Shown here one piece after another: positions 46,228 to 63,521 of a stretch of 64,000 nucleotides of DNA; within the stretch, counting starts at the first letter, position 1; every line of letters begins with the position of its first letter. The position numbers and the translations under genes were made by a program. The notes under the pieces are model-generated. The model worked only from the letters and a program-made list of their open reading frames with translations. It ran no database searches and was not told the DNA's origin. Source of the stretch: a virus (taxonomy: Duplodnaviria; Caudoviricetes); the IMG/VR virus record IMGVR_UViG_3300037424_000485, positions 32,001 to 96,000 of that record; one strand, given 5' to 3'.

Positions 46228-46971
46228 TTAACACTTCTTTCTTCTCATATCACAATCTTTGTGTAGTTTATTATGACACTTATTACATAGAGTGATACAA
46301 TTATCCATATCAGCACTCTCAGTGGGGTTTATTTCAATACCTTCATAGTGATGACAATGCAATTGAACATCTATTTTTCCACATGTTTGACATTTCCAAT
46401 CATCTCTCTCCAACACCAACTTTCTTAGTTCTGGTTGTACTTCTCTGGATGTATTGGTTTTGAACCCTTTGGGGTATTTACTTCTATTATAGGTTCCACA
46501 GGATTTCTTACAGTTGGTTGAACAATAAAGAGATTTTTCTCCTTTTGTAATTCCACTGATGGATCTTATTCTATGTCCTATATTACTATTAGTAGGTTTA
46601 TGATACCTTCCACAATACTTACATTTAACTTCAAGTGATACACCATCATCAGCTAATCTTGGTTCTTCTTCAATGGTTAGTTGATGTGTATATGTTTTAT
46701 ATAGTGCAAAAGAATTCATATATTCTTTGTGGTATTGTATACAATATTCTTTATTGGAATTATAATATTCTTTATGTTTTTGTTTAAAATATTCTTTATT
46801 GGAATTGTTATATTGTTTAAAATATTCTTTATTATCAATACGATATTGTTTGTTACATAAAATACATGTGGATTGATGTCCATCTTTTCTTGAGTTTTGT
46901 TTGTTGAACTCATTAATTGATTTGATTTCTTTACATTTGGGACATTTTTTGGTATAAATAGTTGTAGTCAT
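46228..46971 (-). CDS. HNH homing endonuclease, family copy 8
   Basis: IYTKKCPKC, EEPRLADDGVSLEV and the shared HNH module. Confidence 0.85.
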   Translation of the reverse strand: MTTTIYTKKCPKCKEIKSINEFNKQNSRKDGHQSTCILCNKQYRIDNKEYFKQYNNSNKEYFKQKHKEYYNSNKEYCIQYHKEYMNSFALYKTYTHQLTIEEEPRLADDGVSLEVKCKYCGRYHKPTNSNIGHRIRSISGITKGEKSLYCSTNCKKSCGTYNRSKYPKGFKTNTSREVQPELRKLVLERDDWKCQTCGKIDVQLHCHHYEGIEINPTESADMDNCITLCNKCHNKLHKDCDMRRKKC

Positions 46972-47079: not shown

Positions 47080-48096
47080 ATGTTAACAGAATATGAAGTT
47101 TCTTCTATGTTGTCTAAATTAGGTGTTGATTTTATTAATACCAATGGATATTTTAAATGTAAATGTCCTGTATGTGGAGACAGCAAAAAAAGTAGAAATA
47201 TACGAAGATTGAAGATATCCCAATATCACGATACATGGATGTGTTATTGTTGGAATGGTGGTTGTGATGTACAAGGAATTAATATATTCTCTTTGTATTC
47301 TGATATTACTGGTATTTCATATCTCCAAGCAAAGAAGGAATTGATTGAACCTGTCTATGATAGTAGAATCGTTAAGAAAAAGATGTCCAGTAGTAAAGAG
47401 ACATTGCAAGCAGATGATACAAAGACAGTAGAAATTCTTGACCTTGATATAGATAAAGACTGTTTGAAGGTGTCTTCCATTCCTAATTCTAGAATTGAAG
47501 AACGTTTCCATAAAGCACTGTTATCATTTATCAAAGAGCGTAAAATACCTATAGAGTGTTTTGTAGCTATTAGCGGTAGATATCAAGGTAGAATAATAAT
47601 TCCTATTTATATCAAAGGAAAACTTGTTTATTTTCAAGGACGCGCCATATCTGATAGTATAGAGAATAAATATCTAAATCCATATGTCGAGAAAGGACAT
47701 ATTATTCTCAATATAGATAAGTTCAATGTGGATATGTCTATTATAGTTACAGAAGGATCTATAGATGCGTATATGGTAGATTATAACCAGGGTACTACAT
47801 CATTAGGAGCTGTAATATCAGATGACTTATTAGAGATATTATTAGACCATACTGATAAAGATGTTATTGTGGCGTTTGATAACCCAGATATAGATAAGTC
47901 TGGATACACCACAATAATGAAGATGATAAAAGATTCTAAATATGGGAAGAGAGTTAAATATTTTCTCATGCCATATAAAGATATTAAAGACCTAAATGAT
48001 CTAAAAGTCAAGAAAGGTATTGAAAATATATATCAATTTGTTCTTGATCATTCTCACTCACATTTTTATATCTCCACCATATATAAATTATCTTAA
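47080..48096 (+). CDS. gp61: DNA primase (gp61-like)
   Basis: CPVCGDS zinc domain, YFQGR, VTEGSIDA and FDN.D.D Toprim motifs, KDLND. Confidence 0.9.
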   Translation: MLTEYEVSSMLSKLGVDFINTNGYFKCKCPVCGDSKKSRNIRRLKISQYHDTWMCYCWNGGCDVQGINIFSLYSDITGISYLQAKKELIEPVYDSRIVKKKMSSSKETLQADDTKTVEILDLDIDKDCLKVSSIPNSRIEERFHKALLSFIKERKIPIECFVAISGRYQGRIIIPIYIKGKLVYFQGRAISDSIENKYLNPYVEKGHIILNIDKFNVDMSIIVTEGSIDAYMVDYNQGTTSLGAVISDDLLEILLDHTDKDVIVAFDNPDIDKSGYTTIMKMIKDSKYGKRVKYFLMPYKDIKDLNDLKVKKGIENIYQFVLDHSHSHFYISTIYKLS

Positions 48097-48159: not shown

Positions 48160-48630
48160 ATGAAAATTACTATAGTTGGGTTGGATGTAGTTTGTGTCAC
48201 CGATACAGACTACATTAATAATAAGTCATATAAACATAAGATACATTTGGTTAAGTTGGACTTTTCAGATCCAACATCTGCTAAGATGGAATGGGTTATA
48301 AAAACTTTTAAAGACACTAATAGATTTATTGTTAGTGATAATATTTCTTTTTATAATAGCTATTTAAAACATACAAATAAAAAATATTATGTATTAAATA
48401 CAGAGATAAATAAACTGGTAAGCTTTTATAAGAAAAATAATAAAGTTCTTTTAGACACTACAAAACTATCAGAGTTTGAAAGGATTTTTGTTTTTAATGT
48501 CATTCTTGATGATATATTATCATGTACAGAAGTAATGGTCATAAGTAAAGACGATTATAATTACTATACTAATAAATTAAATAAATGGAGTGGTAATTTA
48601 ATTATATTGGAATACGGAGAGTCTTTATAA
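48160..48630 (+). CDS. Hypothetical protein
   Basis: 156 aa, strong RBS. Confidence 0.7.
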   Translation: MKITIVGLDVVCVTDTDYINNKSYKHKIHLVKLDFSDPTSAKMEWVIKTFKDTNRFIVSDNISFYNSYLKHTNKKYYVLNTEINKLVSFYKKNNKVLLDTTKLSEFERIFVFNVILDDILSCTEVMVISKDDYNYYTNKLNKWSGNLIILEYGESL

Positions 48631-48631
48631 T

Positions 48632-49459
48632 ATGAGTAATATCCTTGCCGTTGGCCCCTTTATAGGATCTTTTGAACAAGAGATAATGAGCTTTATGCCA
48701 TATGCTAGGTATCTATCACAGATTATGGAATATGATGATATATTCATATCTAGTCACTCAAATAGAAGATTCTTATATGATTGGATTGATGATAGAAATT
48801 ATATCTCAATAAATGAAAAATGGACTAGAGATGATTGTAAACAAAACGGATATGTTCATGATGACGTAATATCAAGTCAGTTTATACAAACATCAAAAGA
48901 TTTTAAACAAAAAATAAAAACCGATATAAAATATAAAGGATATCCTATAGAGCTGTATAGTCTGCCATATATAAAAACTGCTCCTATATACTCTACAATT
49001 CAGAAAAAATTCTATCCTATCCGTGTACCACGTACAGATATAAAAGAAAAGGATAAGGATTATGTAGTATTCATAGCAGATGAATCCATTAGCGAAGAAA
49101 CTAGTAACAACATTTACAATCTATTGATTAATGAGTATAATGTCTTAGTGATAGGAGATTGTAAGACACATTTAGCAGAAAAAAATGTTATAATGAAAAG
49201 ATCTGATTATGTAGAACGAGTTTATGAGCTAATATATGGATATATACATGGTGCTAAATTTGTTATAACCCCATGCTCTTATTGGACTATTATATGTAAT
49301 ATACAAAATATTCCTGTATTTAGTTGGGGGGAGAGTCCTGGCATCTATAAATCTGAAGGTACTTTTGGATTTGATAATAAAAATATGATCATATATAATG
49401 ATGACAACAATGCCAAATCACTAGTAGGATCTATAGGATATTTTCAAAAGAAACTTTAA
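48632..49459 (+). CDS. Hypothetical protein, possibly glycosyltransferase-like
   Basis: GPFIGSFEQEI start. A(K)FVI.P.S..T...N...IP pattern reminiscent of GT9/GT-B C-termini. Confidence 0.45.
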   Translation: MSNILAVGPFIGSFEQEIMSFMPYARYLSQIMEYDDIFISSHSNRRFLYDWIDDRNYISINEKWTRDDCKQNGYVHDDVISSQFIQTSKDFKQKIKTDIKYKGYPIELYSLPYIKTAPIYSTIQKKFYPIRVPRTDIKEKDKDYVVFIADESISEETSNNIYNLLINEYNVLVIGDCKTHLAEKNVIMKRSDYVERVYELIYGYIHGAKFVITPCSYWTIICNIQNIPVFSWGESPGIYKSEGTFGFDNKNMIIYNDDNNAKSLVGSIGYFQKKL

Positions 49460-51481: not shown

Positions 51482-52342
51482 ATGATATCAGATGTAAAGA
51501 AGTGTTCTAAGTGTAAAGAAATTAAAAACATTTCTGAATTTTATAAATGTATTTCTAATAAAGATGGTTATAGATATCAATGTATAATATGTACCAAACA
51601 GAGTTATATTTACAATAAAGATAGTATCAGTAAAAGAGCTAAAGAATACTATAAAAATAATAAAGATATTATTATTGAAAAATCTAAGAAATATTATAAA
51701 AATAATAAAATTTCTGTTAGTAAAACAGCTAAGACACGTAGGAAAAATAATAGTGTTATTATAAAAAAACAAAAGAGGCTGTATTATAGTACCAATAAAG
51801 ATATTATTAATAAAAAATCAAAAATATATAGGACATCATTTGCATCATATGAAACATATGCACATCAGCTAACAGTAGAAGAAGAACCTAGATTAGCCGA
51901 TGATGGTATGTCGCTTGAAGCAAGATGTAAATATTGTGGTAAGTATTTTAAGCCTACTAATACACAAGTACAAGGAAGAACTAAAGCTTTGAATGTAGAA
52001 AATAGAGGAGAGTTACACCTTTACTGTTCTGATGATTGTAGATCTAATTGTGATATTTATGGTCAACATATAAATCCTAAAGGATATAAAATAAATAAAT
52101 ACTCAAGAGAAGTACAACCAGCTTTAAGAAAGCTTGTATTAGAAAGAGACAATTGGATATGTCAGAAGTGTGACTCATCAAAAGAACTACACTGTCATCA
52201 CTTTGAAGGCATAGAAATCAACCCAATTGAAAGTGCTGATATTGATAATTGTGTTACATTATGTAAAAAGTGTCATAAAGAAGTTCATAAACAAGATTAT
52301 TGTAACATGAAAAGGGAAAAATGCATTAGTGTGATAAAATAG
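51482..52342 (+). CDS. HNH homing endonuclease, family copy 9
   Basis: KKCSKC, basic helical repeats, EEPRLADDG and the shared HNH module. Confidence 0.85.
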   Translation: MISDVKKCSKCKEIKNISEFYKCISNKDGYRYQCIICTKQSYIYNKDSISKRAKEYYKNNKDIIIEKSKKYYKNNKISVSKTAKTRRKNNSVIIKKQKRLYYSTNKDIINKKSKIYRTSFASYETYAHQLTVEEEPRLADDGMSLEARCKYCGKYFKPTNTQVQGRTKALNVENRGELHLYCSDDCRSNCDIYGQHINPKGYKINKYSREVQPALRKLVLERDNWICQKCDSSKELHCHHFEGIEINPIESADIDNCVTLCKKCHKEVHKQDYCNMKREKCISVIK

Positions 52343-52838: not shown

Positions 52839-53093
52839 GTGCCATTATATAGCATGAAATGTAATAACTGCGATAAAGAAGAAGATGATGTGTTGAAAAA
52901 ATATGAAGAAGCCTATAATTGCCCTGAATGTGGTAGTCCCATGGTTCATATCACAAATTGCACTCATTATAAATTGGTCTATAATAATCAGCGGGATTGT
53001 TGTGACTGGACAGGACAAAGCTCTCAATATTGGAACGACTATAAAGCGGCAAAGGCAAGAGGGGAGAATGTAAAGCCGCAAGGTTCTGATTGA
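52839..53093 (+). CDS. FmdB-family zinc ribbon protein
   Basis: MPLYSMKCNNC...CPECG. Confidence 0.8.
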   Translation: MPLYSMKCNNCDKEEDDVLKKYEEAYNCPECGSPMVHITNCTHYKLVYNNQRDCCDWTGQSSQYWNDYKAAKARGENVKPQGSD

Positions 53094-53208: not shown

Positions 53209-54573
53209 ATGTCAAGAAAAAGAATAACAATAGAAAAAATTAGAAATTTTATGTTGTCTTATGGATATGTTCTAAAAAGTAAAGAATATAAATATAATGT
53301 TAAATTAGAAATTCAATGTCCTAATGATCATATCTTTAAAACCAATTGGAGCAATTTTCAACAGGGTAGGAGATGCAGAAAATGTTCAAATAGCAGAACT
53401 TCTAAAAGATTAACTTTATCATATGAAACCATTAAAGATTATATAGAATCATTTGAATATAAACTCATATCTGATGAATATCTTGATGCACATAGCAAAT
53501 TAACTATTGAATGTACTGAAGGGCATAATTATAAAGTAAAGTGGAACAACTTTCAACAAGGTGGAAGATGTCCTGAATGTAGAAAAAATAATAGAAGTTT
53601 AAGTCATAAACATATAAAAAATAAACATGATTCATTAGTAATGTTGGAATATATAATAAATTATTTACAACAATTTGATTATAAGTTTATTTATGGCGAA
53701 TATAAAAATAGTAAAAGTAAACTAAAAATACAATGCGATAAAAGTCATATTTATGAAACTACATGGGATAATATAAAATATGGTAATAGATGTATAGTAT
53801 GTTATCATGATTCATTAAGAATGTCATTAGATTACATTAAAGATTATTTACAACAATTTGATTATAAGTTTATTTCTGGTGAATATAAAAATAGTAAAAG
53901 TAAGTTACTGGTTCAATGCGGTAAAAGTCATATTTATGAAACTACATGGCAAAGTATACAATCTGGACGTAGATGTACCAAATGCCCTATAAAAAGAAGT
54001 GATGAAACACGTAAAAAATTAAGTGAATCACATAAAGGAAGATTTATTGGCAAAGACAGTCCATGTTGGAAAGGCGGTGGTTTGACATCATCCTTTAATA
54101 CATATTCAGATAAATTATTTTTTGAAGAAGTAAGGTGTGTAGAAAACGATATACTAGAGGTAAGATGTACTTATTGTAATAAATGGCATAGACCTACACG
54201 ATTAAATGCTTGTAATAGAATAAATGGAGTTAAAGGATCTGTATCAGGTGAGAATAGATTTTATTGCTCAAATGGATGTAAGAAATCATGTGAAATATAT
54301 GGCCAGAGAAAATACCCTAAAGGCCATAGAGCAAATAAATATACCAGAGAAGTACAACCTGCTTTAAGAAAGCTTGTATTAGAGCGCGACAATTGGATAT
54401 GTCAAAAATGTAATAGTGATAATAATCTACACTGTCATCACTATGAAGGTGTGGAGATTAACCCTATTGAAAGTGCAGATGTTGACAATTGTGTTGCATT
54501 ATGTAAAAAATGTCATAAAGCAGTACATAAGCAAAATAATTGTGACATGAAAAGGAGGAAATGTGAATCATAA
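53209..54573 (+). CDS. HNH homing endonuclease, family copy 10 (four treble-clef-like C..H..R-C..C repeats)
   Basis: QCPNDH..W.NFQQG.RC repeats, including a 183-nt-period near-duplicate, plus the shared HNH module. Confidence 0.85.
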   Translation: MSRKRITIEKIRNFMLSYGYVLKSKEYKYNVKLEIQCPNDHIFKTNWSNFQQGRRCRKCSNSRTSKRLTLSYETIKDYIESFEYKLISDEYLDAHSKLTIECTEGHNYKVKWNNFQQGGRCPECRKNNRSLSHKHIKNKHDSLVMLEYIINYLQQFDYKFIYGEYKNSKSKLKIQCDKSHIYETTWDNIKYGNRCIVCYHDSLRMSLDYIKDYLQQFDYKFISGEYKNSKSKLLVQCGKSHIYETTWQSIQSGRRCTKCPIKRSDETRKKLSESHKGRFIGKDSPCWKGGGLTSSFNTYSDKLFFEEVRCVENDILEVRCTYCNKWHRPTRLNACNRINGVKGSVSGENRFYCSNGCKKSCEIYGQRKYPKGHRANKYTREVQPALRKLVLERDNWICQKCNSDNNLHCHHYEGVEINPIESADVDNCVALCKKCHKAVHKQNNCDMKRRKCES

Positions 54574-54721
54574 GCGCGGAAGGTGTAAAAACCGTAGAGC
54601 TGGCTGTCTTCTATGTAAACCACACAAAGCAAACGGCACAAGGCTGAAAGATAAACTTCCTTATGGAGATTACAAAAAGGATGTGTTTACAAAAGAAGAT
54701 GTAGATGATATTATAGAATAA
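54563..54721 (+). CDS. Small basic Cys/His protein (not in ORF track)
   Basis: AGGAGG RBS, GTG start. NHKRGRCKNRRAGCLLCKPHKANG. Confidence 0.7.
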   Translation: MNHKRGRCKNRRAGCLLCKPHKANGTRLKDKLPYGDYKKDVFTKEDVDDIIE

Positions 54722-54744: not shown

Positions 54745-55926
54745 ATGGTGAATAAAGATAAAAATGTGCTATTACTTGGATATTCTGGTTATATAGGTAC
54801 AGCATTAACACAGAGATTATTACTTGAAGAATATAATGTAATAGGTGTTGATAATTTTAGCAGAAGATTAAATGTAGAAAAGTGTGATTCTGTTTCCGCT
54901 ATAAACACACCAGATGAAAAAGAAAAAGTTGTATTATTTAAAGGACTTGGTAATTTTGAAAGTCATGTTTTTGATATAAGTAAAGATTATAATAGTTTAG
55001 AGTATCTTTTTAAACATAATAAAATAGATCATATTATAAATCTTGCCCATAATCCATCTGCTCCTTATAGTATGAAAAACCAAGAGCAGTCTGATGAAGT
55101 ATTAAGAAATAATATTTGTGGAACTAATAATATATTATGGTGCATGAAAAAATATGCTACTAATGCTAGTAAAATATCTGCCGGGAGTACGGGAGAATTT
55201 GATCATCAGATTGGAATACCTATAGACGAAAATTCCATCTCTATAGAGGTCGATGGATTGACATCTAAAAATTTTATGTTTCCTAGACACCCAAACTCCC
55301 TATACCATTTAAGTAAAATATCATCTACATATATGATGAACTATATTTCTAAGATATGGAATCTTAGCTGTACTGATGTTATGCAAGCAGTTGTGTTTGG
55401 ATCATATACAGATGATATAGATATAACAGGCATAAACACCAGAATAGATTCAGATGAGTCGCAAGGAACAGTTATACATAGATTTATTGTCCAGGCATGT
55501 ATAGGAGAACCACTTACTATATATGGAGAGGGTCTTCATCAGAGGGGATTTTTATCTTTAAATGACTCCATACAGGCATTTATGATAGGTATAAAAAACC
55601 CCGCTAAAAAAGGGGAATATCTTACATGGAACCAGCTTAGTTCGTGGTCTTCTATTAATGATATATCTGATATGGTGGTAAAAGCTGGTAATAATATGGG
55701 TCTTGATGTACAGAAAAGACACATAACATCTCCTAGACCTGAACATACAGGAACACACTACTACAACTATATTACTAAAAAACTTGCCGATCTTGGGTAT
55801 AGACCCACAAGAACAATAGAACAAGAAATAGAATATACAATGAAAAAGGTATTATCTACGATAGAAAATGATAAAACAATAATACCCATTCTGAGAAAGA
55901 ACGTCATGCCTAAGATTATATTTTAA
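54745..55926 (+). CDS. sqdB: UDP-sulfoquinovose synthase homologue (SQD1/SqdB/Agl3 extended SDR)
   Basis: GYSGYIG, VDNFSRR, SAPYSM, NNICGT.N.L, YHLSK, QAVVFG, RF.VQA.IG.PLTIYG.G..RGFL, NPAKKGEY..NQ, PR.E...HYYN. Collinear with SQD1-family motifs along the whole length. Confidence 0.85.
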   Translation: MVNKDKNVLLLGYSGYIGTALTQRLLLEEYNVIGVDNFSRRLNVEKCDSVSAINTPDEKEKVVLFKGLGNFESHVFDISKDYNSLEYLFKHNKIDHIINLAHNPSAPYSMKNQEQSDEVLRNNICGTNNILWCMKKYATNASKISAGSTGEFDHQIGIPIDENSISIEVDGLTSKNFMFPRHPNSLYHLSKISSTYMMNYISKIWNLSCTDVMQAVVFGSYTDDIDITGINTRIDSDESQGTVIHRFIVQACIGEPLTIYGEGLHQRGFLSLNDSIQAFMIGIKNPAKKGEYLTWNQLSSWSSINDISDMVVKAGNNMGLDVQKRHITSPRPEHTGTHYYNYITKKLADLGYRPTRTIEQEIEYTMKKVLSTIENDKTIIPILRKNVMPKIIF

Positions 55927-56183
55927 TGGATAATTATAATATATTAAATACATTACAGCCACGACAAATAGAATGGCTGTATTGGCTATCACAAGGTGAA
56001 AATCAATATAGTGCGGCTAGTAAAATGGGTGTGTCTCATAGCTCTGATTCTATATCACTAAGGCAGAAGAGTATTAGATTGAAACTAAACTTATCCCGAA
56101 ATTATAGTCTTAAAATTATAGCCATAAATAATAAAAAATGGCTAATAGATAATGTAAAAATAAAAAAATGTGATGTGGTATGA
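55926..56183 (+). CDS. LuxR/GerE-like helix-turn-helix protein
   Basis: LQPRQIEWLYWLSQGENQYSAASKMGVS...IRLKL. Confidence 0.65.
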   Translation: MDNYNILNTLQPRQIEWLYWLSQGENQYSAASKMGVSHSSDSISLRQKSIRLKLNLSRNYSLKIIAINNKKWLIDNVKIKKCDVV

Positions 56184-57025
56184 GAGTAAAAATAAATGAT
56201 GGTATAAGCCTACATAAATTTCAAAAAAAGTCTTCCCAATATATCCAGCTAAAACCTCTAGTTAAATATGATACTGAGAAGAAGCCATATTTTACCGTTG
56301 TTATGTTATCGTGGAATAGATGGGAGAATTTAATTTTAGTGCTTCAAGATCTTCTTAAACATAAGATACCAATGAATTTATGTTTAACTATTCAAGAATG
56401 TAATATCATACCAGCAGAGAAGAAAAAAGAGATTGAGAAGCTTATTGTTCAGTTTCATGCAGCTGATGTAGAATGGCATTCAATCAATAGGGGTACTGGT
56501 GCTCCAAGGGGAGAGGCTATAGATCGTGCTTTAAAGCAGTTTGACTCTCCTTATATATTAACCACCGATGATGATATGTTCTTCCCTAAATATTCATTCC
56601 AAGCCCTTGCCAGTATGCTAGAAGACAAGCCTGAATATGGGGTAGTATCTTTATGGTGTGATCCAAGCTATAGTAAAATAGTTTTAGAAGAAAAACCAAA
56701 ACCTCGATTGAAAGTTCTCGGTTTTAATCAGGGGTTTCACGATGTAACGTGTCTTGGATCTGCCACAGCTATGTGGAGAAGAGAGATATTTGATAAATGT
56801 AAGTACGATCAAAATTATGTGATTGGATGGGCAGATTTTGATTTGACGCTCCAAATTCATTATGCTGGATGGAAATTAGGAGTTTTATGTCTTAATTATT
56901 TAAAACCACTAAATGATAAGGGTAAGAACACACCATCATACAATAAAGTTAGGCACAACATAATACCTGCTAACCAGGGAAAAAAGTATTTTAAAAACAA
57001 ATGGGGTTTTACATGGGGAAGATGA
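56180..57025 (+). CDS. Glycosyltransferase family 2
   Basis: FTVVMLSWNR, TTDDDM and ADFDL..QI..AGW motifs. Confidence 0.85.
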   Translation: MRVKINDGISLHKFQKKSSQYIQLKPLVKYDTEKKPYFTVVMLSWNRWENLILVLQDLLKHKIPMNLCLTIQECNIIPAEKKKEIEKLIVQFHAADVEWHSINRGTGAPRGEAIDRALKQFDSPYILTTDDDMFFPKYSFQALASMLEDKPEYGVVSLWCDPSYSKIVLEEKPKPRLKVLGFNQGFHDVTCLGSATAMWRREIFDKCKYDQNYVIGWADFDLTLQIHYAGWKLGVLCLNYLKPLNDKGKNTPSYNKVRHNIIPANQGKKYFKNKWGFTWGR

Positions 57026-57990
57026 GAATAATTTTTTATACGCCTAAGATTAATAAAATAGGTGGTAGTATTAGAACATTGTTATCCTATATGGATACAA
57101 TTAAAGAATTGGGATGGGATGTAAAAATGTGGACTAGGGTTAATGAGAAATTAAGCCACTTCAGAGATTTACAATCCCAACTATATTTTAATGGATATAA
57201 AAACATAAATGGGTATGATTTTATTATCAACGGCCCCCTTCCCAATGAAGAGAAGGATGTAATGTTTTTTAGAGGCAATGTACAACCATCCTTTAGTGAT
57301 CGCAAATCTATTAACTGGTGTATATCAGATGGGGATGTAAAAGATCATCCATCTATCATTGAGAGATGGACTAATTCTAATACCACTGCCAGTAAGTACG
57401 AGTTGGATATGAATGTTGTTATACCACCACATGACTACTCATTATTTAGAGCACATGGTGGCAATCCACAGGCAAATAGACGAATAGAGTTTGTTCATAT
57501 TGCAAGAATAAATGGGGCGAAAGAAAAAGGCATTGATGTTTTTGTTGATACTGTTCATAGGTTAAAAAAAGCAAGACAGAGCCTTTTGATTGCTATATGT
57601 AATATGAATGATCAAGCCAGTGTTAAATATCTAAGAAGTTTGGATATTCCTATTGTTATAAATCAAGACAGAAAGCAGATGGCCAGCATCTTGAATAATT
57701 CAAAATATCTTTTATTTCCATCTCGTATAGAGAGCTGTTCATTGTCTATCTATGAGGCCATGAATGCTGGATGTGTACCAATTGTTAGAAGTGTAGGTGC
57801 AGCTAGAGAGCAAATGGGGGATCTTGGATATACATTTCAGGATGATAAACATATTGCTTATGCCATAAGAAAGGCATGGGCTGATACTCAAGATTTACAA
57901 GAATATATGGCACAGGGCGAGTTGTTTGATAAGAAAAACAATATAATAACTCTAAAAGATAGGTTGATTAATATAGAAAACAATCTATGA
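57022..57990 (+). CDS. Glycosyltransferase family 4-like (GT-B)
   Basis: IGGSIR, KEKGID, LFPSRIESCSL..YEAMNAGC motifs. ATGA-coupled start. Confidence 0.85.
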   Translation: MRIIFYTPKINKIGGSIRTLLSYMDTIKELGWDVKMWTRVNEKLSHFRDLQSQLYFNGYKNINGYDFIINGPLPNEEKDVMFFRGNVQPSFSDRKSINWCISDGDVKDHPSIIERWTNSNTTASKYELDMNVVIPPHDYSLFRAHGGNPQANRRIEFVHIARINGAKEKGIDVFVDTVHRLKKARQSLLIAICNMNDQASVKYLRSLDIPIVINQDRKQMASILNNSKYLLFPSRIESCSLSIYEAMNAGCVPIVRSVGAAREQMGDLGYTFQDDKHIAYAIRKAWADTQDLQEYMAQGELFDKKNNIITLKDRLINIENNL

Positions 57991-58952
57991 GAGTATTATT
58001 TGTAACTGTTAATAGAGGTCATAGGGTTGCGTTCAATCTGTTTACGCCACTACAGAAAGAATTAGCAACCTTGTGTGATATGGATATCTATGAAAAACAA
58101 GTAGGTATTCATGGCAGGAAATATCAACAAGAATTTTTTAAAAACCCTAATAGTTACATAAAAGAGCTGGACATAAGCAATATAAACAACAATTATGATG
58201 TAGTTATTACTGATGCTTTGTTTGCTTTTATGGGGGAAGATTGGAATTTAGTAACTATTCCTAAGTTTACACTCATAGAAGACCAACATAATCAATGTAT
58301 GAACATTGTGAGGACAGCGAATTCAATTTTTCATAAATTTGATTATTTTATAGTGAGATATAGGGATGCTTTTTACGATAACCATCCTACTATCAATAGA
58401 GATAGGATAATTTGGTCGCCACATGCAGTAGATGTGACATTTTTTAAAGACTATCAAGAGCCTAGAAGTATATATTCATTAACAACTGGTAGTATAGCCG
58501 GATCTATATATCCTTTAAGAGAAAAAGTATATAATGAAATGAAATCTAGTGGACATTACCAAAGAATTGATCGACCAGTAGAAGGCATGGCTGATAATAA
58601 ATGGCCTATAGGACGTGACTATGCTAAATTGCTTAGTTCTTCACTTATATCGTTTGCTTGTAATAGTATTTATAAATATCCCGTGATGAAAATATTTGAA
58701 ATACCTGCATGTAGATCAGTATTATGTTGCGACTATACAGATGAGATGAATGATTTGGGGTTTGTACCAGATATAAACATGCTAGAAATAAGTATGGATA
58801 TGGATATACAAAAATTTATTACATTACAACTAAAAGACAAACAGCGGTTAGAGAATATTGCAACTAGAGGTCTTGAGTTAATTCAAGAAAGACATACAGT
58901 CCAGATACGGGCAAAACAACTATATGATTTAATTAGGAAAATATATGAATAA
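57987..58952 (+). CDS. GT-B glycosyltransferase (CgeB/Glycos_transf_1-like)
   Basis: PHAVDVTFF, YPLRE.V, GRDYAKLL..S, KIFEIPAC, RHTVQIRAKQ motifs. Confidence 0.8.
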   Translation: MRVLFVTVNRGHRVAFNLFTPLQKELATLCDMDIYEKQVGIHGRKYQQEFFKNPNSYIKELDISNINNNYDVVITDALFAFMGEDWNLVTIPKFTLIEDQHNQCMNIVRTANSIFHKFDYFIVRYRDAFYDNHPTINRDRIIWSPHAVDVTFFKDYQEPRSIYSLTTGSIAGSIYPLREKVYNEMKSSGHYQRIDRPVEGMADNKWPIGRDYAKLLSSSLISFACNSIYKYPVMKIFEIPACRSVLCCDYTDEMNDLGFVPDINMLEISMDMDIQKFITLQLKDKQRLENIATRGLELIQERHTVQIRAKQLYDLIRKIYE

Positions 58953-59526
58953 CCTCTCAGAACTCTACTCTAAACAATATGTTAACAATATTGTAAGCAA
59001 GGAATGGAGATATCAAGATTCGGATAAGAAAATACAATTGCTCTATAACCACTTTAAGCCTACCTCTGTGATGGATATAGGTGCTGCTAATGGTGTACAT
59101 ACCAATAGTTGGAGAAAGCTCGGATGCACCACATATGGTGTCGAGGGAACGGTTCATTTTGAACAGTACCTAAAAACCAATGTCGATGAATATATTATTC
59201 AAGACATAAGACAGCCTTTTTATGTTGGGAAAAAGTTTGACCTTGTTATTTCAGTTGAAGTATTAGAGCATATAGAAAAAGAATATATCGATATTACTAT
59301 TAATAATATCTGTGCTCATGGAGATGTATTGTTTATTACAGCAAATCCTAGCGAGGGAGGGCATTCTCATGTTAACCCACAGCCTAAGGAATACTGGATA
59401 GATCTATTCACATCCAGAGGTTATACATATGAAGAAGAAGAGACTAAAATATTTTCTGATATCTATAGAAAAGAGATAGGTACTGGATGGTATTCTGAAT
59501 ATTCGATGATTTTCAGGAATAAATGA
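58945..59526 (+). CDS. Class I SAM-dependent methyltransferase
   Basis: VMDIGAANG, FDLVISVEVLEH, GHSHVNPQPKEYW motifs. Confidence 0.85.
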   Translation: MNNLSELYSKQYVNNIVSKEWRYQDSDKKIQLLYNHFKPTSVMDIGAANGVHTNSWRKLGCTTYGVEGTVHFEQYLKTNVDEYIIQDIRQPFYVGKKFDLVISVEVLEHIEKEYIDITINNICAHGDVLFITANPSEGGHSHVNPQPKEYWIDLFTSRGYTYEEEETKIFSDIYRKEIGTGWYSEYSMIFRNK

Positions 59527-60368
59527 AAATAAATATTATAATGTGTGGTAAGAGTAAAACATTTATAGAATTAATAAAGGCTTTTACATTATCTATCTCT
59601 GAATTAGGCCACACTGTCAATAAGATATATACATACTTTCCAAAGAATAATATAGTTCCCTTAATAGATAATAAGGGTATAGATGTTAATGTATATATAG
59701 GCGTAATAAAAAATAGAAACGTTCTTGATAATAATGTATTTAATGTTTTTTTTAATACAGAACAACAGGAATATTCATCATCACCTAAAATATGGAAAGA
59801 AAAGACATCACAGTTTGATCTAGTTCTTGATATGTTTATCAATAGACCATTATATGGGGCATCTGCTGTATATTGCCCTATAGGATGGTCATCAGCATTT
59901 GAGTCTATGTCTAAAATCCGTCCTGCAAAAACAATGAATGTTGTCCATATAGGGCCTTTGATTGGTGGTAAAAATAATGACAAGATCTACTATCATAACA
60001 ATTATAAAAATATTATAACTGTTAAAGGTGGGTTTGGCGCGGTGAGAGATGATATTATATTAAGATCAAAGATACATTTGATTCTAAGTAGGGGTGAATT
60101 CTATGAGCTACCCCAATTAAGGGCTTTATTTTCTATGTGTAATAAAGTTTTTACTTTGGTAAACACCCATAGTAGTTATGGTATATATGAGCCAGATAAG
60201 CATTTTGTAGTTTTTGATGATTTAGATGTTGTTTCTAGCTATTGGTTGAATAAAAATAAAAGAAGAGAAGAATTTGCTGTAGAATGCTATAGAGATATAA
60301 AGAAAAATCATCCATTTACAATGTATCTAGAAAAAGCAGTAAAAGGTACAACACTACAAGGAGTATAA
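59523..60368 (+). CDS. Probable GT-B glycosyltransferase-like protein
   Basis: NTEQ, FG..RDDIILRSKI.L, E..RALF pattern, embedded in the GT operon. Confidence 0.6.
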   Translation: MKINIIMCGKSKTFIELIKAFTLSISELGHTVNKIYTYFPKNNIVPLIDNKGIDVNVYIGVIKNRNVLDNNVFNVFFNTEQQEYSSSPKIWKEKTSQFDLVLDMFINRPLYGASAVYCPIGWSSAFESMSKIRPAKTMNVVHIGPLIGGKNNDKIYYHNNYKNIITVKGGFGAVRDDIILRSKIHLILSRGEFYELPQLRALFSMCNKVFTLVNTHSSYGIYEPDKHFVVFDDLDVVSSYWLNKNKRREEFAVECYRDIKKNHPFTMYLEKAVKGTTLQGV

Positions 60369-60973
60369 TGTCTAATATAAAATTATCAGTTTTAGTATGC
60401 ACACTACCATCCAGGCTACACCAACTACCTAGCATTATTAAAGAGTTGGATAAACAAGCTACTGGAAAGCCAGTAGAAATTCTATATCTAGGGGATAATG
60501 GGCTAATGGATGTTGGTGTTAAGAGAAATACATTAGTTAATATGGCACAGGGAGATTATGTGGTTCATGTCGATGATGATGACAGAATAACATCTGATTA
60601 TATTGATTATATCTTAGCAGGTATTGGAGATAGAACTGTAGATAGCGTGGTGTTTGATGTAGAGATTACAATAAATGGTAAAGATCCTAAAAAGGTTAAG
60701 TACGGGAAAGACCTTGTTAACTGCAAGCAACCATATGGATATGATAGAATGACAAACCATATAATGTGCGTTAAAAGGAGTATAGCTGTAAAACATCCAT
60801 TTATGGTCACAGGAAGGGCGAAGGATGGTAAATGGGGTAGAGTTATGGCAACAGTCCTTAAAAGTGAAGCACGTATTGATAAAGTTCTTTATTACTATGA
60901 TTTCTATGGCGATAGGTCAGAAGTAAGAGCGCGTTATAAAAAATTTCCAGATCTATATCCAAAAGAGAGATAA
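60368..60973 (+). CDS. Glycosyltransferase family 2
   Basis: LSVLVCT, GVKRN.L...AQGDYVVHVDDDD motifs. Confidence 0.85.
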   Translation: MSNIKLSVLVCTLPSRLHQLPSIIKELDKQATGKPVEILYLGDNGLMDVGVKRNTLVNMAQGDYVVHVDDDDRITSDYIDYILAGIGDRTVDSVVFDVEITINGKDPKKVKYGKDLVNCKQPYGYDRMTNHIMCVKRSIAVKHPFMVTGRAKDGKWGRVMATVLKSEARIDKVLYYYDFYGDRSEVRARYKKFPDLYPKER

Positions 60974-61582
60974 ATGAACAGAGCACAGATTATAAACAAA
61001 ATAATTAAAAAAAGAAAATATGTAGATTACTTAGAAATAGGTATAAAAAAAGGTAAATGTTTTAAAGAAGTTAAGTGTCTGAATATGACAGGAATAGAAC
61101 CAAATCCTGTATGGAAAGATGAAAGACTTGTTTATATGACATCTGATGATTTTTTCAGACAAAACAACAACAGGTATGATATAGTCTTTATAGATGGTCT
61201 TCATTATCATCAACAGGTGTTGAAAGATATAGAAAATTCTCTTAAATGCTTGAATGATGGTGGTGTGGTGGTGTTACACGATTGCAACCCAATTGATAAG
61301 GCACACCAGGCAGTTCCTATAGAGAGAGCTAAAGGAACTTGGAATGGCGATTGCTGGAAAGCTTTTGTATTAACAAGTCAAAAATACCCATACCATATGT
61401 TTGTTGTGAACACAGATCATGGGGTAGGTGTGATAGATACCAAACATGAAATAGAATTGTTGGATAATTATAAACTAACAATTGATGAGCTTCATTATAA
61501 AGAACTGGATAAAAATAGAAAAGAGTGGTTAAATCTCAAGGAAGAATTATATATAGATGAGTGGTTAAATGGGAGAATTTAA
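60974..61582 (+). CDS. Class I SAM-dependent methyltransferase (Methyltransf_24-like)
   Basis: [32 protein letters not shown] motifs. Confidence 0.85.
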
Positions 61583-62120
61583 AACTACAAGAGAGACACA
61601 TCCTAAATTTGCAAATTGTGTAGGTAGACATACCTATGGCCCCATACAAAAAGTTGGTAGAGGGAAAATACAAATAGGTAATTTCTGTTCACTTGCCGGT
61701 GGTATACAATTTATAACATGGGGTCATAAGACAGACTGGATAACTACATATCCTTTATCTGTATTAGATTATTGGAATGGTGGGTCTAAGATTATAGAGG
61801 GACATCCTGTTATATATAATACTATAGTGGTTGGTCATGATGTTTGGATAGGACAGAGTGCTATTATAATGGGCGGCGTGACGATTGAAAGTGGGGCTAT
61901 TATAGCAGCCGGTGCCGTTGTGACAAAAGATGTAGAGGCATATTCTATTGTTGGCGGAAACCCTGCTAAATTAATTAAAAAAAGATTCTCTGATGAAGAT
62001 ATCGAGTATTTACTTAGATTAAAATGGTGGGATAAAACAGATAAAGAGATTAAAAGATTAGTGCCATATCTTTGCACTGATAATGTTAGTAGGTTAAGAA
62101 AAATATTAGAGGCTAAATGA
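61569..62120 (+). CDS. Hexapeptide-repeat O-acetyltransferase (CatB/Vat-like)
   Basis: [43 protein letters not shown] and WWD motifs. Confidence 0.9.
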
Positions 62121-62911
62121 GAATAATAATAACGGGGAGTTCTGGATATATAGGAAATAACCTATGTAAGGCATTGAGAAGTTTGAATCATGATGTTATG
62201 GGCATAGATAAAATAACTGGTGATAATATTAATTCTATTGGAGTTAAAGAACTCATTGTAAAATTCAAACCAGATTGGATTGTTCATCTTGCTGCTCTCC
62301 CATCGATATTAGCATGTGAAGAACATAAAGAACAAGCTACATATGATAACGTAAAAACTACAGAAGTCATTTCTGAAGCTGCTTCAGAAATTGGATGTCC
62401 TGTTATGTTTTCTTCTTCACAAGCTGCTAAGAATCCAGAATCTAGTCATTATGCGTGGTGTAAACATGAATCAGAGACTTTGCTAAACGAAATGAATTCT
62501 GGATATGTTTTGAGATTTTCTAACATATATGGCGGTGATAACTATGCTGAGAAAAAAAGTTCAGTAATGGCCCAATTTGTAAAGGCATATAGAGAAGGAA
62601 AAGCACTAGTTGCTAATGGAAATGGATCTCAAGGTAGAGACTTTTTACATCTAAATGATCTATTAAATGTTATGATAGATTTAATGGATGTACCCCCATC
62701 AACTATGCATACTTTAGATGTAGGTACAGGAATAGCAACATCAATATTAGATATTATTAAAATGTTTAATTGTCCTTATATACTAAACACTAATAGTTCA
62801 AGCGTAGGGATAGAGTCCAACTTTGCTGATGTCATAATGATGAAATTATTAATAGGTTATGCGCCCAAACCACGGATGAGAGAATGGGTAAAGGAGATAA
62901 CTAATGGTTAG
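62117..62911 (+). CDS. NAD-dependent epimerase/dehydratase
   Basis: [19 protein letters not shown] (YxxxK), RFSNIYG and RDFLH motifs. Confidence 0.88.
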
Positions 62912-63521
62912 ATATATAGGTGACTTATCAAAGCAAGATGTTAAAGTTCTTGTTGAATTTAGCACACGATCCAAAAACATACTAGAATTTGGTGTTGGTG
63001 GGTCTACTCAGGTTATGGCACAATCCACAAAAGGAAACATAACCAGTGTTGATACGTCTATTGAATGGATTAATCTTACTAAAGATAATCTAAATATATT
63101 AGGTATTACTAAAGATGTGTCTTTTGTGATATATGACGATTGGAAAAGAAGAAATTATAATACCAAATATGACATGATATTTAATGATGGTATATCCAAT
63201 CTTAGACAGGAGTTTATGGAACTGACATGGGATCTACTAAAGGTCGGTGGACATATGATATTTCATGATACACGTGTAAATGTTCATAAAGATACAATCA
63301 TTGATTTATATATTAAAAAGTGGTCAGAGATAGAACATATTTTGGTAAACACTGACGATAGTAATATGACTGTTATTAAAAAGAAACGCCACACACCCTA
63401 TGTTAATTGGAATAAAAAAGAGGGTAGAGAAGCATGGATGCGCGGCACTGGTAATAGACCAGATGATTTCTTAAAGAGGGTTAGTACCGTTATGTTTAAT
63501 TCCATTGAGTGTGACGAATAG
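62904..63521 (+). CDS. Class I SAM-dependent methyltransferase
   Basis: ILEFGVGGST, YDMIFNDG, GG.MIFHD motifs. Confidence 0.8.
   Translation: MVRYIGDLSKQDVKVLVEFSTRSKNILEFGVGGSTQVMAQSTKGNITSVDTSIEWINLTKDNLNILGITKDVSFVIYDDWKRRNYNTKYDMIFNDGISNLRQEFMELTWDLLKVGGHMIFHDTRVNVHKDTIIDLYIKKWSEIEHILVNTDDSNMTVIKKKRHTPYVNWNKKEGREAWMRGTGNRPDDFLKRVSTVMFNSIECDE

Follow-up and report, generated by a model that had tools for sequence, protein, structure and literature searches.

The window analysed here is a stretch of 64,000 nucleotides, positions 32001-96000 of a 204,431-bp IMG/VR virus record (85% complete) from an uncultured T4-like phage in sediment. The record carries T4-like genes for UvsX, gp46/47, RNR, ligase, primase, helicase and clamp loader, in agreement with the first-pass annotation, which had taken the element for a phage. 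Between positions 54745 and 63521, twelve open reading frames, all on the + strand, occupy the span fully; at every junction, neighbouring genes abut or share 1 to 25 nt, which bears out the packed, co-directional 12-gene operon proposed earlier, translationally coupled and headed by the SQD1-like gene, and the strand changes directly past 63521. The operon is located in the replication module, with the primase on one side and the helicase and clamp loader on the other. It encodes an SQD1-family SDR, a small LuxR-type helix-turn-helix (HTH) protein, five glycosyltransferases (GTs), three methyltransferases (MTs), a hexapeptide acetyltransferase and a second SDR:

54686-54714, + strand: sigma-70-like promoter candidate (TTTACA, 17 nt, TG-TATTAT), consensus kept at 10 of 12 positions, -10 extended by TG
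54745-55926, + strand: g1, SQD1-family extended SDR of phage clade A, candidate synthase of UDP-sulfoquinovose or another C6-modified UDP-hexose (1qrr, NF041015, AF2 model, tree and motifs)
55926-56183, + strand: g2, LuxR/GerE-type HTH protein, 85 aa (Atlas)
56180-57025, + strand: g3, GT2 (GT-A) glycosyltransferase (PF00535, 31.4 bits)
57001-57990, + strand: g4, GT4-type (GT-B) glycosyltransferase (Glyco_trans_1_4, 51.8 bits; Glycos_transf_1, 43.7 bits)
57987-58952, + strand: g5, Glyco_trans_1_2 (CgeB-like GT-B) glycosyltransferase (PF13524, 44.8 bits)
58945-59526, + strand: g6, class-I SAM methyltransferase (Methyltransf_23, _11 and _25)
59523-60368, + strand: g7, GT-B-like protein, 281 aa, without a Pfam family, probable fifth glycosyltransferase (Atlas fold)
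60368-60973, + strand: g8, small GT-A (GT2-type) glycosyltransferase (PF00535, 26.9 bits; PHROG 8858 glycosyltransferase, 125 bits)
60974-61582, + strand: g9, class-I SAM methyltransferase, Methyltransf_24 (PF13578, 44.5 bits)
61569-62120, + strand: g10, left-handed beta-helix (hexapeptide) acetyltransferase, CatB/Vat (XAT) class (Hexapep, 33 bits)
62117-62911, + strand: g11, short extended SDR, RmlD/heptose-epimerase-like, 264 aa (Epimerase, 101 bits; RmlD_sub_bind, 65 bits)
62904-63521, + strand: g12, O-methyltransferase-like class-I SAM methyltransferase, last operon gene (Methyltransf_3, 23.4 bits, cut-off 22)

Significant family matches were obtained for 10 of the 12 proteins, and the other two, g2 and g7, were assigned at the fold level, so that the domain list of the first-pass annotation was matched by Pfam, NCBIfam and PHROG together with the Atlas folds. 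Neither g2 nor g7 has a match in Pfam, NCBIfam or PHROG. In the Atlas, g2 falls with GerE/HTH_24 clusters (feature score 0.93; structural TM 0.70 to GerE domains), and the model of g7 reaches TM 0.79-0.83 to Glyco_trans_1_2/CgeB-like clusters, with mostly viral feature neighbours; the modelled fold suggests that g7 is probably the fifth glycosyltransferase. All GT1 and GT2 matches of the whole 204-kb record lie inside the operon, and g4 is the only PF00534 match in that record. Several further matches stayed below their cut-offs: UbiG (29.6 bits) and a Pse-associated methylase (22 bits) for g6; CatB (147.7 bits) and Vat (141 bits) equivalogs for g10, which also matched PHROG 16087 (178 bits); and heptose_epim (54.7 bits) and rmlD (48.5 bits) for g11. 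By its sequence, g11 is a candidate 4-reductase or epimerase, acting either on a second sugar or on a keto product of g1. The promoter candidate lies 31 nt before the start of g1 and is simply a match to the consensus. The region has no excess of promoter-like sites (77 found versus 68 expected). The ATG follows an AGGAG ribosome-binding site, and the late motif TATAAATA was not found directly upstream of g1.

The g1 protein (393 aa) was compared with plant SQD1 (1qrr), giving a phmmer E value of 1.2e-62, while the next SDR reached only 3e-10. It scored 323.8 bits on the NCBIfam model NF041015, on which the genetically validated SqdB of S. meliloti scored 332.1 bits, and its AF2 model has a TM of 0.86 to 1qrr, with values of at most 0.67 to other SDRs (epimerases and dehydratases). 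In a tree, g1 fell in a separate clade (clade A), whose members here came almost exclusively from phage-like contigs; this clade is sister to, not within, the branch with S. meliloti SqdB. The E value, the TM and the tree position rule out an ordinary epimerase, and both sequence and model support the assignment of g1, a full-length protein, to the SQD1/SqdB/Agl3 superfamily. The earlier name, sulfoquinovose synthase, held for the family and the length of the protein; as to function, g1 is a candidate only, given the separate clade and changes at three positions critical in Agl3.

These changes lie in two motifs. GxxGxxG, S148 and Y187-H188-x-x-K191 are kept in g1, and GxxGxxG, the catalytic Ser and Y-H-x-x-K (with the equivalent of SQD1 His183) were present in all 119 clade A members examined. 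HFGEQR, however, has become NLAHNP in g1, and TMG has become STG. Across clade A, HF[AG]EQR is replaced by NLAHxP (N, L, H and P each in 114-116 of the 119 members) and [ST]MG by [ST][TAV]G, Met being found at that position in none of the 119, whereas actinobacterial canonical homologues have H[FY][AG]EQR and TMG in 117 of 120 cases each. Clade A therefore carries Asn, Pro and Thr/Ala/Val at the positions of the Agl3 His, Arg and Met, where the alanine mutants H95A, R101A and M145A are inactive (PMC4388408), and it lacks [ST]MG, the family fingerprint of SQ synthases (PMC8987622 Table 1).

It might be that g1 no longer sulfonates and is a derived enzyme of the UDP-hexose 5,6- or 4,6-dehydratase type, or adds a nucleophile other than sulfite. 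The RmlD-like g11 would then finish the keto/ene product to a 6-deoxy or otherwise C6-modified sugar, and the glycan would be neutral, methylated and acetylated, with no sulfonate. The near-invariant or Met-free replacements described above are consistent with this, and Agl3 without sulfite does act as a 5,6-dehydratase (PMC4388408, PMC8987622). An RmlD/4-reductase-like SDR is present in the operon and extra SDRs in several related islands, and neither a PAPS reductase nor another sulfite source was found in the record, at its 85% completeness. However, the clade motif is also unlike [ST]DE, [ST]DK and TCE of known 4,6- or 5,6-dehydratases (PMC8987622 Table 1), the Y-H-x-x-K motif with its SQD1-type His is invariant, the similarity of g1 to SQD1 is far above that to any dehydratase, and g11 is no constant partner of g1. 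Pro at the Arg position also occurs in haloarchaeal and viral clade-B homologues, and therefore the Arg to Pro change alone need not abolish activity; moreover, sulfotransferase-like proteins (weak matches) flank the SQD1-like gene in PolA-type phages. We consider the loss of sulfonation unlikely. UDP-sulfoquinovose is a plausible but not assured product of g1, with the chances about evenly balanced, because the sequence is SQD1-like but belongs to a separate clade with changed motifs.

Relatives of g1 were found on at least 31 IMG/VR contigs, and a 2020 paper describes a putative UDP-SQ synthase of viral origin (PMC7785012), both of which temper the rarity first ascribed to this gene. Upstream, about 16-19 loci share a syntenic block made up of primase, c12, c1, Zn ribbon and SQD1-like gene; its members in the window are:

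47080-48096, + strand: DNA primase, gp61-like, cluster c2, first anchor of the conserved block (PHROG 47 DNA primase, E 7e-39)
48160-49459, + strand: two conserved genes of 156 aa (c12) and 275 aa (c1), function not assigned, co-occurring with the primase and the SQD1-like gene
52839-53093, + strand: Zn-ribbon protein, 84 aa, cluster c3 (Zn_ribbon_8, 30 bits)

The primase is found upstream of the SQD1-like gene in 16 loci, including our own. The Zn ribbon, too, is upstream in 16 loci, and in relatives no other conserved gene stands between it and the SQD1-like gene. The gene c1 occurs in 19 loci and c12 occurs in 10, with conserved order; neither has a Pfam or PHROG match. Downstream, the content is variable. 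GT/MT islands follow in our locus and in L006, L012-L014 and L022-L026, some with multi-GT fusions of 650-1012 aa directly after the SQD1-like gene. The GTs recurring with this gene are g3, with homologs (37-44% identity) within 5 kb of it in L012, L013, L022 and L026, and g5, whose homologs (33-38% identity) adjoin it in L012, L013, L022, L023 and L026; no g5 homolog was found among GenBank phages. The SQD1-like gene also occurs in another lineage of phages, of the PolA type (at least 102 contig blocks), where a GT4/MT/GT-D/Caps_synth cluster surrounds it. Co-occurrence with GT clusters was seen in several loci, but about 12 relatives have no GT within 10 kb of the gene.

The natural reading of the operon is a methylated and acetylated glycan built in the cytoplasm. 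As to its acceptor, analogy with Che8 slightly favours a virion protein, with glycosylated phage DNA a close second. Virion glycosylation is known for the phages Che8, Corndog and Myrna, and in mycobacteriophage Che8, whose gp108 belongs to a 108-110 GT operon, the glycosylated proteins include those of the capsid and the tail tube (PMC12363180, PMC11256854). The g8 protein and the N-terminal GT domain of Che8 gp108 (residues 7-183) are homologs (blastp 30.6% identity, E 2.6e-23), and actinophage GTs, from a virion-glycosylating group, are the only relatives of g8 in GenBank phages (61 matches). A homolog of Che8 gp110, the GT reported essential there, was not detected here, nor were Thr/Pro-rich mucin-like tracts in any ORF of the record.

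The site in the replication module and the sigma-70-like, not late, promoter candidate are no less in keeping with modification of DNA or takeover of the host than with decoration of the virion. T4 has its beta-glucosyltransferase gene in the uvsX-41-61 region. A thymidylate-synthase (TS) homologue might provide a hydroxymethylated or hydroxylated pyrimidine, to which the operon GTs would add a sugar chain, possibly with the g1 product, allowing evasion of host nucleases. The record does encode a 445-aa TS homologue. This protein retains the catalytic Cys and has an Asn that corresponds to the dUMP-specific E. coli N177, but Asp at ThyA L143, a change associated with hydroxymethylases (PMC13326640). 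Phage GT clusters, some needing a partner epimerase, put mono- to tri-saccharides on DNA, although none of the DNA glycans described in these papers is methylated, acetylated or in need of five GTs (10.1101/2023.12.21.572611; PMC13326640). However, about 53 kb separate the operon from the TS homologue, which is encoded on the other strand, a search at E <= 0.01 gave no match of the five GTs to the alpha/beta-GT families of T4 or to TAGT, the PolA-type lineage, which also has the SQD1-like gene, carries ThyX and hence ordinary thymidylate synthesis, and the relatives of g8 point to virions. DNA glycosylation by this route is possible but doubtful. The first-pass statement that no characterised phage example exists applies to a sulfonated glycan, but not to glycosylated virions or DNA.

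Least probable is an auxiliary 'LPS-like' island remodelling a host surface polysaccharide or other glycoconjugate, for instance in superinfection exclusion, with a lipid carrier, flippase and ligase of the host: GT2/GT4 enzymes, O-methyltransferases, an LbH acetyltransferase and SDR nucleotide-sugar enzymes are typical of O-antigen/capsule clusters, the island is hypervariable among relatives like surface-glycan loci and the promoter candidate is of an early type, but the operon has no initiating phosphoglycosyltransferase, Wzx, Wzy, ABC transporter, ligase or Gtr-type membrane protein, a scan of its 12 proteins for 19-residue hydrophobic segments found none except the beta-helix core of g10, and the SQD1-like clade is on phage-like contigs and is no recent host acquisition. 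In a minor variant, g1 and g4 would make SQDG and spare phosphate, SqdX and SQD2 being GT4 enzymes; yet g4 has generic GT4 matches only in NCBIfam, with no SqdX-, SQD2- or SqdD-like signal, upholding the earlier remark that no SqdX/SQD2-type synthase is identifiable with confidence, and the bona fide sqdB locus of S. meliloti has one lipid GT, unlike the five GTs, three MTs and acetyltransferase here. By gene content, sulfolipid and O-antigen-type export are both unlikely, because all 12 proteins are without membrane segments and a flippase, polymerase and SqdX are absent from the operon.

Our preferred explanation is a self-contained cytoplasmic glycan-building module of a T4-like phage, in which: g1, as an NAD+-dependent extended SDR, would oxidize host UDP-glucose at C4 and dehydrate it at C5-C6, the reaction of SQD1 and Agl3 ascribed to it by family, and release a C6-modified UDP-hexose, most probably UDP-sulfoquinovose through addition of host sulfite, a product made uncertain by the rewired active-site wall of the phage clade; g11 would supply or finish a second nucleotide sugar; the five soluble GTs, judging from domain content, would assemble an oligosaccharide, which the three SAM methyltransferases and the acetyltransferase would then decorate; and the chain would be built directly on a cytoplasmic, phage-determined macromolecule, as the lack of a membrane protein, flippase, polymerase or initiating phosphoglycosyltransferase suggests. 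Module, g1 chemistry and acceptor taken jointly, we give this explanation an even chance. Of the sulfonated, methylated and acetylated phage glycan proposed at first, the methylation and acetylation agree with the enzyme content and the all-soluble set, but the sulfonation is as evenly balanced as the product of g1. The operon suggests that the phage may put an unusual acidic sugar chain on one of its own molecules.

The twelve-gene glycan operon is real, and the first-pass annotation (an SQD1-like gene followed by glycosyltransferase (GT), methyltransferase, acetyltransferase, epimerase and HTH genes) described it correctly, as the family or fold assignments for all twelve genes agree with that inventory. 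The ORFs are consecutive and their junctions are gapless or overlap by 1 to 25 nt. The strand switches after position 63521, and the GC content of the operon is that of its surroundings.

Genes of the glycan operon (window positions 54745-63521, plus strand, in order)
g1, SQD1-like SDR, heading the operon
g2, 85-aa LuxR/GerE-type HTH protein, assigned from Atlas features and fold only
g3, GT2 glycosyltransferase
g4, GT4 glycosyltransferase, with generic family matches only (top match GlgA at 31 bits)
g5, Glyco_trans_1_2 protein
g6, SAM methyltransferase
g7, GT-B-like protein without a Pfam family (Atlas structural TM of about 0.8 to Glyco_trans_1_2/CgeB-like clusters)
g8, small GT-A glycosyltransferase
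g9, Methyltransf_24 protein
g10, hexapeptide acetyltransferase of the CatB/Vat class
g11, short RmlD/epimerase-like SDR
g12, O-methyltransferase-like protein

All GT1 and GT2 matches of the whole record fall within this operon. No membrane segments were predicted in g1 to g12, and no hydrophobic 19-mer exceeded 1.6 except in the beta-helix core of g10. A megablast search of 50,697 GenBank phages with the operon gave zero matches, and no g5 homologs were found among GenBank phages.

The record is linear, 204,431 bp long and an estimated 85% complete (the window being bases 32001-96000). It carries T4-like genes for a tRNA nucleotidyltransferase, a helicase, an ATP-dependent ligase, gp47/gp46-like SbcCD, UvsX, RNR and a primase, with a DnaB-like helicase, a clamp loader and a sliding clamp just past the window end. 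As no GenBank phage primase is more than 28% identical to that of the record, the virus belongs to a distant, uncultured T4-like lineage. In a search of sequencing runs, its DNA was present in two sediment metagenomes and no RNA datasets holding it were listed. The clamp-loader gene (record positions 102124-104453, plus strand; L052:6624-8953), which lies outside the window, is apparently split into a 204-aa N-terminal and a 242-aa C-terminal part matching the same PHROG (positions 7-110 and 109-307); the parts are about 1 kb apart with two small ORFs between them, which may reflect an intron or a mobile insertion. Just past the window, convergent with the operon, is a 198-aa SAM-methyltransferase-like gene (record positions 96329-96925, minus strand; PHROG 30877, weakly 2226) that may or may not be a functional part of the glycan module.

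Upstream of g1 is a sigma-70-like promoter candidate (TTTACA-17-TGnTATTAT, 54686-54714), although promoter-like sites were not enriched relative to shuffled sequences. The T4-type late promoter TATAAATA is absent directly upstream of g1, and one such motif occurs inside g5, at 58671. The same interval holds an unlisted 52-codon ORF (54563-54721, plus strand) with a GTG start preceded by an AAGGAGG ribosome-binding site; it shares 11 nt with the 3' end of an HNH gene, stops 23 nt before g1 and encodes a basic product with Cys-x6-Cys-x2-Cys. If this ORF is real, the sigma-70-like site falls within it, and there may be read-through into g1 from upstream. Several HNH-type, homing-endonuclease-like genes are found in and around the block running from the primase gene to g1:

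35039-35941, plus strand, HNH-type gene farther upstream
46228-46971, minus strand, HNH-type gene
51482-52342, plus strand, HNH-type gene
53209-54573, plus strand, 454-aa HNH-type copy immediately 5' of g1, additionally bearing CapR-homology repeats

Three of them are paralogous (cluster c326). Relatives have other inserts in this interval, namely an RNA ligase, a Dam methylase and unknown genes.

Membership of g1 in the SQD1 superfamily is solid from both its sequence and its predicted fold. In phmmer searches it matched Arabidopsis SQD1 (1qrr) with an E-value of 1.2e-62, the next SDR being at 3e-10. The AlphaFold (AF2) model of g1 (25 homologues, pLDDT 76.7, pTM 0.82) superimposed on 1qrr, 1i24 and 1i2b with a TM-score of 0.86 at 33% identity, while epimerases and dehydratases reached 0.67 at most. 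Sequence and model both match the SQD1-type extended-SDR architecture, SQD1-specific elements included, and the expected motifs are present (G12-x-x-G15-x-x-G18; S148, aligned to SQD1 T145; Y187-H188-x-x-K191). The g1 score of 323.8 bits against the NCBIfam model NF041015 is below the 575-bit equivalog cut-off. We rejected this as evidence against g1 function, because the validated S. meliloti SqdB, from a sqdB-GT locus, also fails (332.1 bits), as do homologues from Rhodobacteraceae (344.9 bits, adjoining a PAPS reductase gene), the haloarchaeon Haladaptatus (353.6 bits) and Pseudonocardia (458.4 bits); the cut-off is therefore uninformative here, and only one of 14 control genomes exceeds it.

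The orthology of g1 with the validated enzymes is less secure. In a maximum-likelihood tree (52 sequences, LG+G4, rooted with two phage SDRs on long branches), the SQD1-like proteins were monophyletic (100/100) and split into two branches. Five viral proteins (clade B) fall in one of them (99/97), together with S. meliloti SqdB and the actinobacterial and haloarchaeal homologues. The other (98/92), its sister, is clade A, in which g1 is joined by 19 other viral proteins from IMG/VR and by 16 proteins from metagenomes or MAGs. The tree was built without plant SQD1, cyanobacterial SqdB and Agl3, and the homology search seeded with the Pseudonocardia protein returned only actinobacterial homologues; motifs of SQD1 and Agl3 were taken from the g1-SQD1 alignment and from PMC4388408.

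The two branches differ in the active-site wall. SQD1, S. meliloti SqdB, the Rhodobacteraceae and Pseudonocardia proteins and 117 of 120 actinobacterial homologues have the canonical H-[FY]-[AG]-E-Q-R before SAPYS, and the Agl3 primers encode HFAEQRSAP (PMC4388408). Clade A instead has N-L-A-H-x-P (N-L-A-H-N-P in g1), of which N, L, H and P each occur in 114-116 of the 119 members; haloarchaeal and clade B proteins, too, have Pro in place of the Arg. The replaced residues matter in Agl3, in which the alanine mutants H95A, R101A and M145A are inactive (PMC4388408). The family fingerprint of UDP-sulfoquinovose synthases, [ST]MG (PMC8987622, Table 1), is likewise absent from g1, which has S-T-G; at this position clade A has TTG (61), TAG (26), TVG (16) or STG (13) and Met in none of 119 members, whereas TMG is present in 117 of 120 canonical actinobacterial homologues. 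On the other hand, YHxxK, including the His after the catalytic Tyr (SQD1 His183), is retained in all 119 clade A members, and the clade A motif differs from every known 4,6- or 5,6-dehydratase motif (PMC8987622). Residues conserved only in clade A include GEYDH, an extra His in G.HQRG, WNQLSEW and HYY. As the g1 model is unreliable over residues 148-197 (pLDDT <50), a stretch that includes the catalytic wall and the SQD1-specific insert, active-site geometry was not inferred from it.

These results indicate that g1 is, as judged from its sequence, a distinct SQD1-superfamily variant found on phage-like contigs. The label "sulfoquinovose synthase" is right as to the superfamily and putative as to the product: g1 is no ordinary epimerase, as the grouping with epimerases that was named beforehand as the contrary outcome occurred in neither the phmmer search, the fold match nor the tree, but clade A lies outside the branch containing the validated SqdB and has both HF[AG]EQR and [ST]MG replaced. 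We would give UDP-sulfoquinovose an even chance of being the product of g1, the remaining probability being split among other C6 chemistries.

Sulfoquinovose has been described in photosynthetic membranes and in the N-glycans of Sulfolobus. The enzymes nearest to g1 are SQD1 (Arabidopsis; 1qrr, 1i24), SqdB (cyanobacteria, Rhodobacter, S. meliloti) and Agl3 (Sulfolobus acidocaldarius). With these g1 has in common GxxGxxG, the catalytic Ser/Thr, Y-H-x-x-K, SAPYS, CTD..Q and NRF, and its NF041015 score is in the range of that of S. meliloti SqdB. It differs from them in belonging to a separate sister clade, in having NLAHxP for HF[AG]EQR and [ST][TAV]G for [ST]MG, and in heading a five-GT operon in a virus; it also lacks the archaeal N-glycosylation (AglB) context of Agl3. 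In the literature, the only viral UDP-sulfoquinovose synthase that we found is a putative one in a metagenomic Mu-like virus from the Cariaco Basin, discussed as a glycosylation AMG by Mara et al. 2020 (PMC7785012). That case resembles ours in the annotation of the gene, but it concerns a single gene in a Mu-like temperate phage, and the paper presents no GT operon and no analysis of clade or active site. In a 2026 review of sulfoquinovose cycling, viruses appear solely as a cause of cell lysis.

No PAPS reductase and no sugar-1-phosphate nucleotidyltransferase were found in the record, so the host must provide the UDP-glucose and any sulfite used; as the record is 85% complete, both absences are weak evidence. 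On a Rhodobacteraceae plasmid (CP081099.1; L040:4334-6758), a canonical-motif SqdB homologue lies between GT2/GT4 genes and genes for a sulfotransferase and a PAPS reductase; in this cellular example, the SQD1-type gene comes with a sulfite source of its own, and its neighbourhood is that of a glycan locus, not a lipid one.

The distribution of the SQD1-like gene was examined in several collections. A tblastn search of the 50,697 GenBank phages with g1 revealed no SQD1-type gene, only generic SDRs of 22-25% identity, and PHROGs returned only a generic epimerase family for g1. A scan of IMG/VR with the single protein gave no matches, while an alignment-based scan found 31 loci, 26 of them at 47-51% identity and several on contigs of 100-300 kb. 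A search of 185,579 species-representative genomes with two clade A peptide patterns yielded only four loci, each on a short MAG contig. The Woesearchaeota-labelled contig has phage synteny (primase-c12-c1-Zn ribbon, c1 and c12 being conserved genes without a Pfam or PHROG match), and the Parcubacteria- and WOR-3-labelled contigs have island genes in common with a 234-kb viral contig (L004). A further homologue (P0043), labelled "Patescibacteria" at NCBI, was found in at least 102 contig blocks, mostly of 50-200 kb, where its neighbours (PolA, clamp loader, RNR, ThyX, dUTPase and RNase HII) form a phage context. Probably, P0043 and the loci assigned by GTDB to Parcubacteria, Woesearchaeota and WOR-3 (L035, L036 and L037) represent phage DNA mis-binned into MAGs.

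Clustering of all ORFs of the loci showed the order c4 - primase - c12 - c1 - (c14) - Zn ribbon - SQD1-like gene in about 16-19 loci, and the order from c4 to the SQD1-like gene is present in the window and in the contig of the closest homologue. Downstream of the gene the loci differ. About 12 of them continue with a baseplate module that includes a gp5-like hub and have no GT gene within 10 kb. In the window's own locus, L006, L012-L014 and L022-L026, a GT/methyltransferase island lies 3' of the SQD1-like gene; such islands often open with a 650-1012-aa fusion of GT2, Glyco_transf_7C and Glyco_trans_1_2 domains, and homologues of g3 and g5 recur in five of them. A PolA-type lineage has an island with GT4, methyltransferase, GT-D and Caps_synth genes and two weakly sulfotransferase-like proteins. 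Co-occurrence of the SQD1-like gene with GT clusters, which had been proposed as something to be sought in phage databases, was thus found in IMG/VR loci and in no GenBank phage. In at least two phage lineages, then, the SQD1-like gene is the constant element of a glycan locus that is otherwise hypervariable.

In the PolA-type large phages, the sulfotransferase-like proteins (about 215 aa; L004:11163-11822, L047:7477-8121 and L047:11167-11826) flank the SQD1-like gene within the GT4/methyltransferase/GT-D/Caps_synth island. Their similarity is weak (PF00685, E 8e-4) or faint (PF13469); if true, it would be independent support for sulfur-containing phage glycans. Inteins were also seen in relatives, one in the RNR large subunit (L048:1-3878) and one in a radical-SAM protein, alongside a LAGLIDADG domain (L021:12218-14389).

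To which acceptor the glycan would be attached can be considered in the light of known viral systems. A virion protein is a tentative first choice, at somewhat below an even chance. The enzyme set is wholly soluble, as are the phage GTs of Che8 (genes 108-110), Corndog and Myrna, which, according to Freeman et al. 2023 as summarised in PMC12363180 and PMC11256854, are encoded in one operon and glycosylate capsid and tail-tube proteins in the cytoplasm (see also PMC12619734). Moreover, the only relatives of g8 among GenBank phages are 61 actinophage GTs, including the N-terminal GT domain of Che8 gp108 (E 2.6e-23). However, no match to gp109 or gp110 was found in the operon at E < 0.05, and gp110 is reported as essential. 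The Che8 group consists of unrelated actinophage siphoviruses, whereas the present virus is a T4-like sediment myovirus whose operon is four times as large as that of Che8, additionally encodes nucleotide-sugar synthesis (g1, g11), three methyltransferases and an acetyltransferase, and sits in the replication module. This location, the sigma-70-like promoter candidate in place of a late promoter directly upstream of g1, and the absence of mucin-like Thr/Ser/Pro-rich tracts from all ORFs of the record in our scan all argue against virion proteins. Chloroviruses and Mimiviridae decorate virion-protein glycans without host secretory machinery, using nucleotide-sugar enzymes, soluble GTs and sugar methyltransferases (PMC9614988, PMC7019647). 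The phage operon encodes a similar predicted enzyme set; the giant viruses are eukaryotic viruses, though, with no sequence relationship shown, and no sulfonated sugar is reported in these two papers.

Phage DNA is only slightly less probable as the acceptor. The position in the replication module and the promoter type fit it, and diverse DNA glycans are documented, including those made by the T4 alpha/beta-GTs, the arabinosyl-5hoC of RB69 and DLP3 (PMC13326640) and those of metagenomic GT/epimerase clusters (10.1101/2023.12.21.572611). As in our operon, such GT sets lie amid replication genes, and some require a partner SDR epimerase for the nucleotide sugar (10.1101/2023.12.21.572611; PMC13326640). 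Outside the window, the record also encodes a 445-aa protein (record positions 148489-149826, minus strand; L043:1489-2826) whose C-terminal half has a thymidylate-synthase fold. It keeps the catalytic Cys and the Asn equivalent to E. coli N177 and has Leu at ThyA H147 and Asp at L143, the latter a substitution associated with hydroxymethylases (PMC13326640). It is a candidate for a dUMP hydroxymethylase, and in that case the phage would replace its thymine. However, its gene is about 53 kb from the operon, with neither it nor a C5-MT/5mYOX gene adjacent; g3 to g8 match no known DNA-GT family (T4-Gluco-transf and TAGT being absent at E <= 0.01); the PolA-type lineage encodes ThyX; and neither methylated or acetylated DNA glycans nor such enzymes acting on DNA-linked sugars are described in the literature consulted (PMC13326640; 10.1101/2023.12.21.572611).

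A host glycoconjugate is unlikely, as the operon encodes no membrane protein, initiating phosphoglycosyltransferase, flippase, polymerase or transporter of an envelope-type pathway; other acceptors take the remainder. O-antigen-type export was marked down for the same lack of membrane proteins. A sulfolipid (SQDG) pathway was rejected: as noted in the first-pass annotation, no SqdX/SQD2-type sulfolipid synthase accompanies g1, nor does SqdD or any GT8, g4 has generic GT4 matches only, and in the bona fide S. meliloti locus sqdB is paired with a single GT.

Taken together, we put forward as a speculative proposal, less likely than not as a whole, that clade A, which is nearly exclusive to phage-like contigs, primase-side in an uncultured T4-like lineage and rewired in its active-site wall (NLAHxP, [ST][TAV]G, extra His), produces a UDP-sugar that is sulfonated or carries some other novel C6 substituent, and that variable GT islands would transfer this sugar to virion proteins or hydroxymethyl-pyrimidine DNA. 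If true, this would give bacteriophages their first sulfonated glycoconjugate and add a new branch to the sugar chemistry that forms C-S bonds; with a sulfonated sugar on phage particles or DNA, viral glycoconjugates would gain a new class and the organosulfur cycle in sediments a new sink. For annotation, the labels "UDP-sulfoquinovose synthase" on viral and CPR-MAG proteins should be read with caution since they rest on a clade of predicted chemistry, and several "Patescibacteria", "Woesearchaeota" and "WOR-3" contigs with a clade A gene resemble phage DNA. Whatever the sugar, the conservation of the gene beside the primase in this lineage, its distinct active-site clade on phage-like contigs and the hypervariable GT islands make a defined, testable system that lends itself to studies of how the surface or DNA glycans of large phages are diversified, in relation to host range, anti-restriction and the evasion of immunity and defence.
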